Below, piece after piece: positions 13,407 through 33,900 of a DNA stretch of 64,000 bases; positions within the stretch are counted from its first letter, which is position 1, and every line of letters begins with the position of its first letter. The notes under the pieces were generated by a model. It was not told where the DNA came from and did no database searches. It saw nothing but the letters and a program-made list of their open reading frames with translations. The translations under genes and the position numbers were made by a program. Location: assembly GCF_988243305.1 (NCBI RefSeq), contig NZ_OZ547136.1. The stretch is one strand, 5' to 3'.

Positions 13407-13593
13407 TGATGAAAAATAGTGTCGCTGAGCACTAAAATTTAATGTAAATGGTGTGTTAAATCGATTGTGAATAACCAGCGCTTCCGGCAGGATACGGTCG
13501 CCCTGGTAAAACATAAACTCTGCTACCCCGTTCCGGTGGCAGATATAACGGCAAGTTTCGACATTGCCGATAATAATTTTTTGGAGACTTTAG

Positions 13594-15102
<1,509 letters not shown>

Positions 15103-15678
15103 GGGACTTAGCCTGCGGCGGTTTTGTTTGGCTTCAGCAGCGGGTTGCGCTCCCTTAATGTGCCTCGCCATATAAATTGAATGGTGCAGGGGGCGGCCAA
15201 TCGCCGCCACCCCCTGCACCCCGGGCTCTGGCGAACAAAATCGCCGCTGCGCGGTACCTTCAGCTTATCCCCTTCGGCTACCGGGTCGGGCGCGAGGTAA
15301 TGTCCTATAAGACGCGCCCTCAGCCCACATCCATGTGGGCTGCCCTGGCCTTCGGGGAACGCTTCAGCGACTTTGACGCCACCAACACCCGAGCTGTTAT
15401 TATGTTCCGGGCAAAAAGTTAGATTTGATAATCGCGGATGGACGAAATTGCTTGATACACCCGCTTATCAGTTTTACATGGAAGCTCTGATGCATTGAGT
15501 CTGGACAGTTTTGTCGGCTGGATAAGGCGTTTACGCGGCATCTGGCAAGAACACATGGCTCGTTGTAAACAATCCCATCTTTGTACCTGGAATAATCGTT
15601 TATATCCCTTGCCATTACCTCTCTTTGTTTACATTCCAACATCATTTTATAAACATTCCGCTTGTATTTTTCTTTGCC

Positions 15679-23518: not shown

Positions 23519-25336
23519 TCACTCCTGCTGAGACTGAATTATTCCTAGTGCGTCATAAATCAGTCTTCTGCGTAGTTTATTGTTTTTATCTGCACCATAT
23601 AACATAAATATATTTTCAACTTTTTCTTCAGGTGTTCTGAGATAATGGATAAGAAAGGTTATCATTCCAACACAATGGAATAAAGTGAATCCATCAAACA
23701 GGCTTATCAGGTTTCCTTTTTTTTCCCGTGTTGTAAGTATTTTTTCGCGGGTAAGAATATTTGCCAGTTCATGGGGGGCTGATATGTTTCTGCTGTCTAT
23801 AATGTCATTTATTTTACCAAGGGCTATATCAACTTCCTGTAATAGGTTATTTATCATAGCTGAGTGAATGTTATTGGTTTCATGTTCCTGACAGTTTATG
23901 AACTTATAAATCATTGAGTTATACAGAAATATTACTCTTCCTAATAAATATGTGTTTGTGTCATTTTGAAGACAGGACTCTGGGTATTCGTGATCCAGTG
24001 AAATAAGGTTAATGGACTCGCCCTGATAAGTCATAAAATAATTGATGTCATTTAATAATGCTCGGATATTTACATGATTTTTACTGAATTTTATTTTAAA
24101 TGCTATCTTTAGTATAGCAAACGCGGCAATGATAAATCCAAAAGGTAATTTCTCATAGTTCAGTTTATTGATGGTGCGATGAACACTTTCAGTCTTTCCT
24201 GAAGTAAGTTGTCTCAAACAGTTAACAAATTCTGTATAGCCATTTAAGACATAATGGCATGAAGAATCTTTTAAAGAGTTTTCTATGTTTTGTAATGTGA
24301 CGCCGTTGTTCAATGTATAAATGTAACCGCCAAAGACAATGTTTTCAATCTCAACGACACAATTTATTGTTTTTTGTTCAGGATAAAGATAAATATCAGA
24401 AATACTATAGTCTCGTATTGCGTCAATGGCATCCCACGATAATGCACTGTCAATTTTCAGTGTATAAAATGGTGAGTTCTCATTAGGAAAGTAATATATG
24501 TATTTGTTCAGTATATTCATTACATCTATTGGGTTGGTTAAATATAATAACTGGCATTCATATTCTGAAACTTCTCTTTCGCTTATCAGCATTTTATATA
24601 AAGTTGCCAGGGTGCTTGTTAATGAAGTTCGTCTTTCGAAAGCCAGTAATATAGTGAGATAATAACATGCAACCTGAACTTTATCTAAGTCAGAAATTAT
24701 TTTTTCCTTGTCTTCATTACTTAAATAAAGCAGATGTTTACAGGTTTCTTTGCATGTGTTGATAGTTGCGATAAGTTTTGTTTTTCCTGGTGTACTGTTT
24801 TTGCGAATATTACGAATGAATTCATATACGCCATCAAAGATATCTTTGAAATGCGCATTCGCTGGCGTGTATCCGGATAAACATAACTTAACGTAATTTC
24901 GCAGATATGTCCTTGCAGCATGATATATATCATCCTCATTATCCGGTATCTGAGTGAGAAAAGAATGAATATGATAGTAAAATGCCATCTCATTATCCGG
25001 GCGATATGTGTTCCTGATGTCGAGTGCGAGAATCATTGGTACAATGTCATTAAAATATTTTTGTTTTATTATTTGATGTGTTTTGTCTGTAAAAACAGAA
25101 TAGTGCATTAGCTTAACATAGAGATCTTCATATCTCCTAAATATAACTTTTCGTTGTTCTTTACTCAATACTTGTTCTTTATCAATAATGTTTATTAATT
25201 CATCAAACATGTCGCCCAGTGAATGTTGATGTGAGGAAAAATTTTTAATATTTCGGATGTCACGGCTATTCTGGTTTTTAGCCAGAACACCAAAACATGA
25301 AAAGACATCATACATTATAGTGATAAAATTATACAT
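23519..25336 (-). CDS. hypothetical 605-aa protein, low-GC orphan
   Basis: Long uninterrupted ORF in a strikingly AT-rich segment. I recognise no domain. Has one or two hydrophobic segments (LPFGFIIAAFAILKIAF, FTLFHCVGMITFLIHYL). Confidence 0.6.
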   Translation of the reverse strand: MYNFITIMYDVFSCFGVLAKNQNSRDIRNIKNFSSHQHSLGDMFDELINIIDKEQVLSKEQRKVIFRRYEDLYVKLMHYSVFTDKTHQIIKQKYFNDIVPMILALDIRNTYRPDNEMAFYYHIHSFLTQIPDNEDDIYHAARTYLRNYVKLCLSGYTPANAHFKDIFDGVYEFIRNIRKNSTPGKTKLIATINTCKETCKHLLYLSNEDKEKIISDLDKVQVACYYLTILLAFERRTSLTSTLATLYKMLISEREVSEYECQLLYLTNPIDVMNILNKYIYYFPNENSPFYTLKIDSALSWDAIDAIRDYSISDIYLYPEQKTINCVVEIENIVFGGYIYTLNNGVTLQNIENSLKDSSCHYVLNGYTEFVNCLRQLTSGKTESVHRTINKLNYEKLPFGFIIAAFAILKIAFKIKFSKNHVNIRALLNDINYFMTYQGESINLISLDHEYPESCLQNDTNTYLLGRVIFLYNSMIYKFINCQEHETNNIHSAMINNLLQEVDIALGKINDIIDSRNISAPHELANILTREKILTTREKKGNLISLFDGFTLFHCVGMITFLIHYLRTPEEKVENIFMLYGADKNNKLRRRLIYDALGIIQSQQE

Positions 25337-28856: not shown

Positions 28857-29676
28857 ACGACTTAATCGTTGAGTACATATAGTCTCCTCTGCTACTTGCG
28901 GAGGAGACTAATGTCTTTACCATGTCAGCGTTGTATTAGAAAACTCTGGTACAGGTCAGTCAGTAAATATAACTGGTGTAACCACTATTTACTATTGGAT
29001 AGAGTGTTGCTCAGGATATTGTCGGCTTTAGTCTGAGGTGAGGTGGGGCCTTCATTGTTTTCGTGTTCAATAAATAATTTAGGTTAATTAGTATTATTAG
29101 TGGAAGTTATGTGATCTGTTATGTTGTCTTGTACGCACTTAACACTGGTTACGTACCGGAACACTATTAGAGTATGTTATGGCTCTGTTACAGTTTATAG
29201 GTATGAAAAAATATAATCTTTCCTGTATGAAATAATATTCTTATGGTGTGTGGGGTATGGTCTGTATACCATCATTTTTATGGTGAAGTTAAATATCTGT
29301 AGAGGCCTTAAGCTGGGTCGCTGTTTTTACTTAATGGTACAGAAGTATTAATAGCGGTGTTGCCTGTGGCTACCCGATACTGGCTTTTGTGAATGTCAGA
29401 TTACTTCCTGTAAGTGATTGAATGGTACTTCCTTAAACTCAATTCTATGAGGTGTGTTTTTACCATTGTAATTCGTACTGGTCCTCAGTTTAAGTGAGTC
29501 TTACTGTACTCTGAAATATTACCTCTTTGGAGTAATGAGGTAATACGAAACAGTTTTATCAGGTTGTCTGTGCTGCTGGTTACCTCGTTTATTAATGCCG
29601 CGGTACGGCGTTTCTGTACTCTCAGTATTTATGTAATTCCACCTTCCTGTAACTTTTATAAAGTAAGGACTATAAA

Positions 29677-30240
29677 ATGTATAATGCTAATCCCAATTAC
29701 GAAATGGACTTCATGATTCTGAAAGACGTGAATGAACACATGGAAGGTCTGTTTCAACGTTTTTCTAAACTGTTACCTTTCAGAATTGATTTTGCCTACA
29801 GGAAAGACACGCCCAGTTTTGGTCATTCCTGTAGGCACAGTATGTGTATTGAAATGCACCGCTTACTTAGTGAAACCCAAACGATGCTGGCGGGATATTA
29901 CTGGGTAATGGAATATACGTCAAACAAGGGACTTCATATTCATTTTATCGGCTACTTGGATGGGCAACGTCACAAGAAATTTTATCGGATATCCAGGCAA
30001 CTGGGAGATATCTGGAGTCGGATCACGGAAGGGGAGGGTTATTTTCACCTGTGCAGTACTAAAGACAAATACTCGGTGCGTATCGATCACGTGATTCACT
30101 ATAGTGATAAGTCTGCGGTAGACGGTTTACGTTACGCCCTTAGCTACCTGGCTAAACAGGATCAGAAAGAACACGGTATTATTCTGGGCCGTAGCAGGCT
30201 TCCCGAAAAAAGCAACCGGGGCCGACCACGACATAACTGA
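29677..30240 (+). CDS. inovirus Gp2-family / YagK-YfjJ-like protein (HUH-type)
   Basis: 187-aa ORF with LLPFRIDFAYRKD and GLHIHFIGYLDG (HUH-like) motifs; same position as yfjJ in CP4-57. Confidence 0.7.
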   Translation: MYNANPNYEMDFMILKDVNEHMEGLFQRFSKLLPFRIDFAYRKDTPSFGHSCRHSMCIEMHRLLSETQTMLAGYYWVMEYTSNKGLHIHFIGYLDGQRHKKFYRISRQLGDIWSRITEGEGYFHLCSTKDKYSVRIDHVIHYSDKSAVDGLRYALSYLAKQDQKEHGIILGRSRLPEKSNRGRPRHN

Positions 30241-30394
30241 ATTACAGTTGTATTAGGTATTAAAATTAAGTTTCTGTAAGTTGTTGGGAGGTGCTTGAGT
30301 TAATAGGCAGAAGAGGGCGGGGCGCTTTGTCATCAGTGTAGGGGACCCGAATTTCTGCCGTGGTACCTCAGTGGATCGGATACAGGTAACGAAT

Positions 30395-30739
30395 ATGGTT
30401 CATAAATCTGACAGTGATGAATTAGCTGCACTGAGGGCAAACATAACTTGAAGCTTATGGGATTGAATGGCGACGTAAACCGCAGAGTCCTGTGCAGTGC
30501 GTTTCCGTATTATCCACGGATGAGAAAGTTGCGTTATTTTGTCGACTGTTTCGCGGGCGTGATGATGTATGGGCCCTTCGATGGGAAAGCAAAACCAGCG
30601 GCAAATCAGGGTACTTGCGGGCCTGTGCTAACGAATGGCAGCCGGGAATAGCGGTAAACTCCGGATAAAATGTGGGGACTGCGCTCACCGTCAGTTGATC
30701 CCTGTATCTGATCTCATCATCTACCACTACACGGTTTAA
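30395..30739 (+). pseudogene. 5' remnant of an archaeo-eukaryotic-primase/helicase-type conflict-system gene (two frameshifts, premature stops)
   Basis: Three frame segments: MVHKSDSDELAALRANIT* / LEAYGIEWRRKPQ...STDEKVALFCRLFRGRDDVWALRWESKTSGKSGYLRACANEWQPG...* / KCGDCAHRQLIPVSDLIIYHYTV*. From memory this matches the conserved N-terminus of that family. Confidence 0.5.
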
Positions 30740-30902
30740 CGGGGCCGCGTCATCTCGGCGTTGCCCGATAAATTCTTTTCTACGTATAATAACCAGAATG
30801 AACGTGTAAAACACCATAGTATTCAGAACTATAAACATCGAAACCTGCCATATTGACCAGAATAAATGACCTTATTTTTACTGAAATTTAAGGAGAACAC
30901 CG

Positions 30903-33900
30903 TTGGAAGTAGAAATGTGGGATGGTGGCTTACAAGAACAGGAAGTATTGGCTATCGAGAAAATAAAAGCTGCTTTTTCAGTCAACGTATCTAAGCCTGA
31001 CAAGCCTTTCCGTAGCGGTTCAATTAGTGAGCAGCTAAAAAGCTATGGTTTTATCGGCAATGAAATGTTCCCTTGGAAAGGTTATGCAGGTTTTCGATTT
31101 GTTGAGGCAAAAAAAGAGGGGGAATTCGATTTAGTTATTGTAACACACTGCAACGTGATCATTGTTGAACTGAAAGACTGGAACCATCAGCCTGTAACCG
31201 CACGCGGAGATACTTGGTTTAAAGGCGATAAGAACATGGGGCGCTCGCCAGTAAGCGTGACTCGTAGCAAAAAATTCATGCTGGACAAAAAACTCAAGCG
31301 TCTGGTAGACCGTTTTACGAACAAAGGCTATATCCCGATTGTTCATTTTTTTGTTGTGATGACCGGCAATGCAGATTTCAGCGCGCTGCCGGAGGAACAA
31401 CGGCGCCATACGATCTCGTTAAAAGATTTCCTGAAGTTTGCCGATCGCGGGAGCTTCAATAACTATTTCAAACCGCACCCAGCTACCAAGGTTCTTAACA
31501 AGGATTTCCATCTTTTCGATGATTTGTTCCTAGGGCCTCAGACGGCACCAAAAGCCTTGAGAGTTAATGGCTATGAAGCTAATGATATGATTTTCGAACA
31601 TCCTAAAAAGGTGTATCGAGAATATCTGGCAAAATCTGAGATATCAACGAACAGCGAAGCGCTACTCAGAGTATGGAATTTTAGAAATATAACGGGAACG
31701 AAAGCGAATACCCCGGAAGGACGAGCTCAGATTGTTTCACGTGAGCGCGAAGTGTTACAGCACATCAATCACCAGAATCGTGACCTGTATAACCACTGTC
31801 TCAGGTCTTTGACGAGTTTTCAGAAAGACGAGGTGACGGCCGAGTATAGCGAAGTCTACGAAGTTCCGCCGGGTCATGTCCGGTTTAATGAGTTTATCGG
31901 AAAATATGGTAAGAACTTTTCTGATATGGACCGCTTGAATGTGGTGAAACTGCTCATTGCAAAGTTTAGTGATCTCCATGAGATGAAAATTGCGCACAGG
32001 GATGTCGCCGATCACAGTCTGTGGATTTCACCTTCAAAAGAAGTTGCTCTTTCGAACTTTATTTCGGCTTACCACCAGCCAGCCGGAACGGTTGGCGATT
32101 ACCGTAAGCTTTTATCCGTAGGTGCAGTCCACGTAAAAGACATGCTTGATAAGGGCGAGCTTACGCCTTTTCAGCAAGATGTTCATACTCTGGGCCTTGT
32201 CGCCTGGCACTTATTTAGCGGTATGCGCATGTCGCCAAAGAGTCTGGAGAAAGTACAGGACAACATGCTAAACAGCCAGCACTGGTATTCATCTGTATTA
32301 CGGGATGCCGTTGCCGCAAAATTCACTTCTGCAACAGAATTCTTTGATGCCCTGAAACAAGCCGAACCTGCTGGCAAGGATATTCCAACATTTGATGATA
32401 CTGAGCTTGACCCTTACCGACATGCTATCAATCACGCTCGTCAATACCCGGAAGACGATGGCTTTCAGTTTCAGGTCGAAACAGTCGACAAAGAAGTCTA
32501 TATCTCGAAAGGAAGGCTCGTGAAGGCTTGGCTGAATGTTGGGGGACAGGGATACGATCCGTCAATTAATTTCCAGGTTCTGAAGTTTTTAAAGCAGGTT
32601 GAGCGGCTTTCTTCAGTTAAAACAACGTATCTACCTCAAATTCGTGAATTCGGTATCGCATCAAAATCATCAAGCCTATATATGGTCACGGATCAGGTAC
32701 AGGGAGAAACCTGGGATAAAATAGCGGTCCCCGATGATGAAAAAATCGACCTCATTGGTAAGTTTGTCGCCGCCGTTGAGCACTTACATGGTCTGGGTGT
32801 TTCTCACGGGGACATCCACCCTGGCAATGTGATATTTGAGACACAGAGCCGTTTGCTTTTTCTCATCGATATCCCCGATTTTTCACCGTCCGGTGACGAA
32901 CCTAAAAATCACAGTTACAGCCCTGAATACATTGATAATTGTACTTCTTTTGAACGTGACAACTATGCAGTGATGAAGATGTCCTGCGAGTTGCTAGGCA
33001 TGTCATGGGGGCTGGAATCAGACATTTATCCGACAATCGCGAATGCTATCCGAGCAGAGCTGGAAGATCCGGTTTTTGGGTTTAAGGATTTAGGCCGCTT
33101 TAAAAAAGCGATAGATAGTAATGACCTGGTGCCAGAACAAGACCTGATAGAGATTACTGCAGGAAATGCCGATGAAATAATCTCTATTCTGCCTGATAAC
33201 GGGCATCTGTATGTCAAAGTTAAGTCAAATCCTAAAGCGCCAGCTGAAGTAAATGTGACTTTCTCTGGGATTGGTGGCAGTTTTACTGCGGTGTTCAACA
33301 AAGATCAGAAGACGCTGGTTCATGGCTTCAGGCCACGGGCTCGCGTCACAATTCGTAAGCAAGATATTGATGAAAGCCAGTTCGAAATTGATACTGGCAT
33401 CAAGATTATTCCCGGCAGTCCGCAGGATCTGTCGGCGTTGACAGTATTGCTTAATGAAGAAGAATCTTTTGCGCGGGCAATCGAGTTGATTGCCGCAACT
33501 GAAGATGTTCAGGTACAAGAGCCACTTACGCTTCAGCTAAAAGATACCTTTGCAAGGCTTGATAAGCAGACGCTTGAACCTTCTTTAAGAGAAGTGCTGG
33601 AAATCCCAACAGTGAAACTGTGGCGCGCCATTCTGGATACTGAAACAGAATCTTATCCAAACATTGAAATCAGCGGTGAAGTGGTCCCGGTTGCAGATGC
33701 TCATGGAGAGCTTCTTCTCCCTTACTCTGCTGATGTTGATCCACTCGGTGCTTTCAGAAGTAGTGATGAAGTCGAAGCCTTACAGGTCGATCAGGAAGGT
33801 GTTGAGCGATTTATTGGTGAAGTGTCACTTAAGAAGTCAGAGCTCAAAGAGATTCGTCTTGTCAAAGTTAGTTCAGCAGCCTTCAAGCTGAAGGATTCTG

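Follow-up and report, generated by a model that had tools for sequence, protein, structure and literature searches.

The segment at positions 30395-30727 of the window (the whole stretch of 64,000 nucleotides that was analysed) is very probably a non-functional stub of a gene for a 786-aa AEP-TOTE/SF2-helicase protein, and the rest of that gene has been replaced by a type I Mokosh system together with its own flank. The stub is an ordinary pseudogene that is already recorded in the RefSeq/PGAP annotation, and in that respect it is nothing new. There is little importance in the stub itself, an already-flagged pseudogene beside an already-named defence system. Its use is that of a landmark, which shows where the conserved backbone (int, AlpA, YfjI, Gp2/YfjJ) gives way to the variable payload in a common family of E. 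coli islands and gives a relative date for the coming of Mokosh with respect to the loss of the earlier occupant. The intact form of the lost gene is a candidate conflict gene. The features concerned are:

29677-30240, plus strand: Gp2/YfjJ-like (HUH Rep-like) backbone gene, 187 aa, intact
30241-30394, plus strand: intergenic region before the former AEP-helicase gene, kept intact (3 differences in 154 sites compared with EDL933)
30395-30727, plus strand: AEP-TOTE primase/SF2-helicase pseudogene remnant, codons 1-117 of 786 (from PF22548, alignments with intact alleles, the megablast end and PGAP)
30728-30733: six junction bases, TACACG, which in a three-way alignment have no counterpart in either the old gene or the Mokosh flank
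30734-30914, plus strand: native Mokosh 5' flank, brought in with the operon (homology to a Chimaeribacter arupi plasmid)
30915-35873, plus strand: mkoA, encoding NERD, Ser/Thr kinase and Upf1-like SF1 helicase, 1652 aa, intact (1656 aa if the start is TTG at 30903)
35870-37306, plus strand: mkoB, 478 aa, intact, matching PADLOC MkoB PDLC03923 over its full length (E 1.9e-151)
37307-37371: about 65-70 bases between the end of Mokosh homology and the IS66 fragment, delimited by the end points of the comparisons
37372-37458, plus strand: part of the interior of an IS66-family tnpC gene, at which the replaced segment ends on the right (homology starts at 37371/2)

Reading frames and identity of the remnant

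An earlier note on this DNA, made from the letters alone, had described three consecutive frame segments broken by stop codons, and all three are present in the sequence. The first piece (30395-30448) translates as MVHKSDSDELAALRANIT and is followed by TGA at 30449, the second (30447-30665) runs LEAYGIEW...IAVNSG and ends before TAA at 30666, and the third (30668-30736) reads KCGDCAHRQLIPVSDLIIYHYTV before TAA at 30737. The second piece consists of 73 aa and not 72. Joined together, the pieces (114 aa) match the Pfam family AEP-TOTE, PF22548, with an E-value of 1.1e-16 and 61.6 bits over profile positions 1-68 of 230, which is above the Pfam gathering score of 27 bits. The NCBIfam models gave only a weak PrimPol_Msp match of 24 bits against a cut-off of 200. 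The resemblance of the stub to AEP-TOTE is far beyond chance.

An intact homologue is found in E. coli O157:H7 EDL933 (WP_000233452.1, 786 aa), directly after the Gp2/YfjJ gene. The protein contains the domains AEP-TOTE (residues 49-277, 329 bits against PF22548 over profile positions 1-228), DNA_primase_S (147-245), ResIII (423-565) and Helicase_C (639-738), and the motifs of the AEP catalytic core (DxD, sxH and hD) are seen as DFD at 142-144, GAHVW at 176-180 and DRLF at 216-219. When aligned, the first 351 nt of the EDL933 gene and the stub are about 91% identical, both are located in the same position directly after Gp2/YfjJ, and the region upstream is 98% identical. The stub differs from the EDL933 gene by deletions of 17 bp and 1 bp, stops at codon 117 and is without the catalytic AEP core and the helicase. 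The proposal that this was the N-terminus of a gene combining an AEP primase with a helicase is thus borne out both by the Pfam match of the joined pieces and by an intact homologue with both parts. No closer intact E. coli allele was found above about 91% identity to the stub; the inspected matches of at least 95% (H1, H57) were the Mokosh-linked stub.

In strain 2013C-4538 the counterpart of 30395-30730 (locus L001, 9155-9490) is annotated by PGAP as a pseudogene with the label 'TOTE conflict system archaeo-eukaryotic primase domain-containing protein; frameshifted; incomplete; missing C-terminus'. The DNA of such annotated copies, for example C6999_RS13690 in NZ_CP027582.1, is 100% identical to the stub with the same junction and neighbours, but the island of the annotated copy adjoins clpA whereas that of the window lies at the serX-side locus. 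The stub displays both frame disruption and truncation when compared with an intact homologue at the same position. That the pieces are chance ORF fragments, or the product of a sequencing or assembly artefact, has next to no probability; this explanation was rejected given the Pfam match, the identity of about 91% with the intact gene at the DNA level and the recurrence of exactly this sequence in about 250 independent complete genomes.

Lesions and extent of decay

Three lesions separate the stub from a working gene. Alignment of the DNA with intact alleles shows that 17 bp have been deleted at 30441/30442 and 1 bp at 30650/30651, and in both megablast and alignment the homology with the old gene stops abruptly after 30727, so that codons 118-786 are gone. 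Because the two deletions sum to 18 bp, the third piece is back in the original frame. The earlier count of about 115 surviving codons agrees well with the 333 nt that remain, which represent codons 1-117 of the intact gene minus 18 deleted bases. The limits of 30395-30739 first given for the remnant hold as far as 30727, while the last residues of the third piece (Y-T-V-stop) belong to the junction and to incoming DNA.

All AEP catalytic motifs are missing because the stub ends at residue 117 and every one of them lies beyond that residue in the intact protein. Judged by what is left of it, the stub is a relic of a PF22548 family member and not a working member. ResIII/DEAD and Helicase_C domains are absent after the stub and throughout the window, and a tblastn search of the 64 kb with the intact protein gave nothing below E 0.2 except the stub. 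A simple insertion into the AEP-helicase gene was therefore rejected, as there is no 3' fragment in these 64 kb, and the 3' part has been removed and not displaced. The earlier view that the upstream region of the 1656-aa gene replaced the rest of the old gene was accordingly correct, with the breakpoint at 30727/8.

The extent of decay is smaller than the term 'decayed', used in the earlier note, would suggest. It fits the two indels and the truncation, but the remaining divergence is mostly allelic. With the indels set aside, the stub and the EDL933 allele differ in 29 of 333 sites, distributed as 10, 5 and 14 over codon positions 1, 2 and 3; these counts are based on EDL933, and the reference Esc22 was left out for its own frameshift. 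For comparison, the divergence from EDL933 is 3 of 154 sites in the intergenic region and 16 of 564 in the Gp2 gene. Since 17 of the 29 changes are synonymous, the pattern indicates that most of the divergence arose between working alleles and not by decay after inactivation.

The incoming operon and its joins

Its two genes identify the incoming operon as a complete type I Mokosh, a known anti-phage system. The first gene matches PADLOC MkoA (PDLC03921) over its full length with 2206 bits and contains the Pfam domains NERD, Pkinase, AAA_11 and AAA_12 as well as the NCBIfam IGHMBP2-family helicase, and it overlaps mkoB by 4 bp. In mkoB no HxKxxxxD motif was found by regular expression, and there was no Pfam match, PLD included. 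MkoB of Mokosh has been described as a PLD nuclease (bioRxiv 10.1101/2022.05.11.491447). The earlier note took the scar as independent support for a defence role of the operon. The role itself is upheld by the PADLOC matches to MkoA and MkoB, but it rests on the match to Mokosh and not on the scar.

The operon has a counterpart on a plasmid of Chimaeribacter arupi, in which a Mokosh locus homologous to 30734-37291 sits directly after an AVAST type 1 system. The segment 30734-30914 is about 89-91% identical to the avs1c-mkoA intergene on that plasmid, and because this homology starts at 30734 the segment is the 5' flank of Mokosh itself. A promoter scan gave a promoter-like site in this flank, TTGCCC-18-TATAAT at 30761-30790, which agrees in 10 of 12 positions, although the number of such sites is not enriched compared with shuffled sequences. 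Mokosh is most likely transcribed from this site, which would have been brought along with the operon, and possibly also by read-through from the retained old promoter.

Homology with other Mokosh loci ends at 37291-37300. The IS66 fragment that follows is 92% identical to the tnpC gene of ISEc23 (L008, 17760-17847) and has thousands of IS66 matches. In Nissle-type islands this fragment comes directly after the Gp2 gene and extends 30 bp further to the left. As these islands have neither stub nor Mokosh, the fragment is an older scar. No direct or inverted repeats of at least 8 bp were found at the two joins of the cassette, and no IS ends. Both joins therefore look like illegitimate recombination. 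A search for a hairpin or origin-like structure at the breakpoint was likewise negative, in that the DNA folds no better than shuffled sequences (z 0.02 for the intact gene and -0.60 for the window).

Close relatives of this Mokosh operon are found beside other defence genes. In the Chimaeribacter arupi plasmid (L097, 1774-15571) AVAST type 1 is directly upstream, in a second relative (L008, 3414-16241) a trio of histidine kinase, response regulator and nucleosidase resembling Detocs is nearby, and in an IncHI-type plasmid (L009, 10033-21318) TnsD and TIR-domain proteins are found in the vicinity.

The variable slot

The backbone of the island in EDL933 has the order integrase, minus-strand ORF, AlpA-like regulator, DUF3987 fragment, YfjI and Gp2/YfjJ-like gene. 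The Gp2/YfjJ gene of the window is 97% identical to the EDL933 copy (16 mismatches in 564 sites), is called 'inovirus-type Gp2 protein' by PGAP in identical DNA, and gives sub-threshold Pfam matches to REP_ORF2-G2P and YagK_YfjJ_C. The slot after this gene was found in seven arrangements among the islands compared:

EDL933: intact AEP-helicase gene, then IS66
Esc22: full-length but frameshifted copy of the AEP-helicase gene
The window: stub and Mokosh
CP52E and NY1601: stub ending at 30725, 2 bp earlier, then a second Gp2 module, which in CP52E is split by an IS3-family element
Nissle 1917 and other UPEC islands: a stub that already stops at about 30624, followed by DUF417/TetR/DUF1471 genes
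A second Nissle-type island (SYNB1934, N31): stub absent
K-12 CP4-57: abpB/abpA and rnlA/rnlB

Alignment of the related islands thus provides the intact version of the gene (EDL933) and both ends of the replaced segment, the left join at 30727/8 and the right at 37371/2. It also supports the turnover of cassettes after the Gp2-like gene that was proposed from the window, whereas the designation of the slot as a defence hotspot is correct only for several of the occupants (Mokosh, AbpAB and RnlAB). Others are not defence genes, namely the DUF417/TetR genes, the second Gp2 module and IS elements.

Some observations concern the rest of the window. The left 22 kb (1-21900) constitute the rut/put/efe/pga chromosomal flank, with best E. 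coli matches of about 97% identity in 3-5 pieces, and this flank places the island at the serX-side locus. No tRNA genes are present in the window. A 605-aa ORF on the minus strand (23519-25336), which lies between the genes for the integrase and the AlpA-like regulator, is conserved in every island with this backbone and has no annotation beyond hypothetical. Two IS copies of 1312 bp (38163-39474 and 58131-59442), both containing a 296-aa ORF, are 100% identical and point in the same direction, and the first of them interrupts an 'enterotoxin' gene that is intact in strain 2013C-4538.

Distribution and order of events

The stub is abundant in E. coli. The DNA of the window is E. coli-like. 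The 662 bases at 30241-30902 were found by megablast to be identical in many complete genomes, with 280 genomes covering at least 80%, and the same stub-Mokosh junction is present in about 280 complete genomes. An 80-nt probe across the 17-bp deletion gave a contiguous match in about 1000 of 5426 complete E. coli genomes. With a 933-nt probe, 1719 genomes have some copy of the stub or gene and 728 have a version that reaches well past the breakpoint, which leaves about 990 genomes with truncated copies only, a number close to that of the deletion carriers. The sampled long alleles (about 25) span 951 nt for the 933-nt probe, so they keep both deleted segments, and none of them carries the 17-bp deletion.

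The 17-bp deletion is common to the window, the variant in E. coli CEA601S (L005) and the classes ending at 30725 and 30624, and it was present in all truncated remnants that were examined. Only the two Mokosh classes, the window and CEA601S, carry the 1-bp deletion. Stubs of the 30725 class (L007 8280-8350 and L015 8280-8400, compared with 30715-30733 of the window) stop two bases short of the Mokosh junction, run on into a second Gp2/YfjJ module and have the 17-bp deletion as well. The CEA601S stub (L005, 7858-8336) is a mosaic with a Nissle-like left part and a window-like right part, which reveals homologous exchange inside the pseudogene. In the same strain mkoB is interrupted by an IS3 element (13476-15143).

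Because the 17-bp deletion is also found in remnants without Mokosh, the AEP-helicase gene was probably dead before Mokosh arrived. The following history is proposed. In its intact form the AEP-TOTE/SF2-helicase gene of 786 aa follows the Gp2/YfjJ gene in CP4-57-like integrative islands of E. coli, and the 17-bp frameshift would have killed one allele before the downstream neighbours were exchanged; the truncation may also have been earlier. A 6.6-kb segment with mkoA, mkoB and its own upstream region has replaced everything from codon 118 to the middle of the neighbouring IS66 copy, and would have done so after that frameshift. Mokosh would in this way be one of several later neighbours, replacing an already dead gene. 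That two truncations lie so close together, at 30725 and 30727, on the same dead allele is most simply explained by common descent. Since the mosaic in CEA601S shows exchange inside the stub, the 17-bp deletion could instead have spread between islands by recombination and need not be ancestral.

Two other sequences of events were considered. Mokosh might have recombined into a live AEP-helicase gene and removed its 3' part in one step, with the small deletions as later decay. This would fit with the Mokosh class, whose remnant reaches furthest (to 30727) and whose junction is clean, with no more than 6 non-matching bases, and with the restriction of the 1-bp deletion to the two Mokosh classes. 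It is nevertheless rather unlikely, because the 17-bp frameshift is also found in Mokosh-free remnants cut at 30725 and at about 30624 beside unrelated DNA, and because the deleted allele occurs in about 1000 genomes, a long version is missing from about 991, and 0 of about 25 sampled long alleles are deleted. It is also conceivable, but very unlikely, that one ancient dead stub, with the 17-bp deletion and cut at or near 30727, serves in CP4-57-like islands as the fixed left border of a cargo-exchange site to which payloads such as Mokosh, the second Gp2 module and the DUF417/TetR genes have been joined repeatedly, within 0-2 bp of one position. If this were true, it would point to site-preferring recombination or to selection that keeps the stub as a promoter or boundary element.

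Function of the lost gene

The earlier note placed the gene among conflict systems. The EDL933 protein matches the PADLOC model PDLC01465, 'PrimPol' (CAS-associated), over residues 2-352 (E 2.5e-147), and the annotation of the 2013C-4538 and EDL933 loci shows no cas genes within 9 kb. The annotated neighbours within 9 kb of the EDL933 gene are YfjI, Gp2, a 58-aa ORF and IS66. Pfam searches showed no TPR, OB or TBP domains in the equivalents of YfjI and Gp2 in the window, a search that covered these two genes and not the 58-aa ORF. Nothing experimental on the AEP-TOTE helicase was found in the literature searched.

More than 592 relatives of the AEP-helicase are present in species-representative genomes. 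The best 80 of these are 63-73% identical and all belong to Beta- or Gammaproteobacteria, and since there is no enterobacterial locus among them this set is uninformative on close relatives. A Gp2 or YfjI homologue is found beside the AEP-helicase gene in none of these 80, and genes for type I R-M, RhuM, YhcG or AbiE are found within 7 kb in 27. Of the 80 proteobacterial loci, 17 have an ORF of about 181 aa immediately before the AEP-helicase gene and on the same strand; it is conserved, has no Pfam match and is a possible partner gene.

Mobile elements commonly have AEP primases as replication proteins. The lost gene might thus have been the island's own replication primase-helicase, in other words part of the backbone, and the stub would in that case represent decay of a mobile module and not turnover of defence cargo. 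The location directly after the genes for a HUH Rep-like protein and DUF3987 (YfjI) in an int/AlpA island of E. coli is in line with such a role. However, that association is not repeated in the 80 best proteobacterial relatives, about a third of which lie near restriction or other genes of the kinds listed above; the helicase is of type SF2 (ResIII/Helicase_C) and not of the replicative SF3 or DnaB type; and the same slot in K-12 CP4-57 is occupied by AbpAB and RnlAB. A replication gene is consequently considered unlikely, and the gene neighbourhoods of the relatives speak rather for a conflict gene that stands alone.

Possible function of the stub

The stub itself, we infer, does nothing. 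A conceivable use would be that its promoter or 5' leader drives or regulates the cargo (Mokosh), or that the 18-codon ORF or a transcript has a role. The upstream 154 bp are 98% conserved compared with EDL933, and a stub of at least 212 nt is found in about 1000 E. coli genomes with three junction classes, which could be taken as signs of retention. Against this, Nissle-type islands have lost both the stub and the intergenic region but kept the backbone, the upstream region has diverged strongly in the CP52E class, and the flank of Mokosh, which is conserved in an unrelated plasmid, has its own 10/12 promoter match. There is neither a match in Rfam nor an unusual fold; a scan of 29600-31200 for non-coding RNA gave only a chance snoRNA match (E 0.55). 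Retention of the stub for its usefulness is therefore highly improbable. A 127-aa ORF on the minus strand (30455-30838) was rejected as a gene, as it has no Pfam match and is absent from the PGAP annotation.

Comparison with known systems

TOTE stands for TPR, OB, TBP and Effector according to Aravind et al. 2022, as cited in PMC12458937. Because no TPR, OB/CSD or TATA-binding-protein-like (TBP) partner genes accompany the E. coli gene, it shares the TOTE domain but not the TOTE system.

Mokosh type I consists of a helicase with a Ser/Thr kinase and a partner gene and defends E. coli against phages (bioRxiv 10.1101/2022.05.11.491447; Millman et al. 2022). The operon in the window agrees with this in its helicase and Ser/Thr-kinase architecture and in matching both PADLOC models over their full length. 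It differs in that MkoA also has an N-terminal NERD domain, and in that the 478-aa MkoB shows no HxKxxxxD by simple pattern search and has no Pfam match.

Satellite-like islands with int, AlpA and HUH-Rep genes at tRNA genes carry large variable payloads of defence and non-defence operons, according to the available text of a preprint (Bell et al. 2025, PMC12458937). The cargo treated in that text is ARMADA, Druantia and Zorya at tRNA-Leu, and neither the AEP-helicase stub nor the Mokosh junction is described in it. The elements themselves, as presented there, are of the same kind as the one in the window, with an integrase, an AlpA-like regulator and a Rep-like rolling-circle initiator.

The cryptic prophage CP4-57 of K-12 has a different attachment site, on the ssrA side, and different cargo, and no AEP-helicase gene or stub is listed for it. 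Its backbone nevertheless has the same order, intA-yfjH-alpA-yfjI-yfjJ, and anti-phage genes (abpB/abpA and rnlA/rnlB) follow yfjJ in CP4-57.
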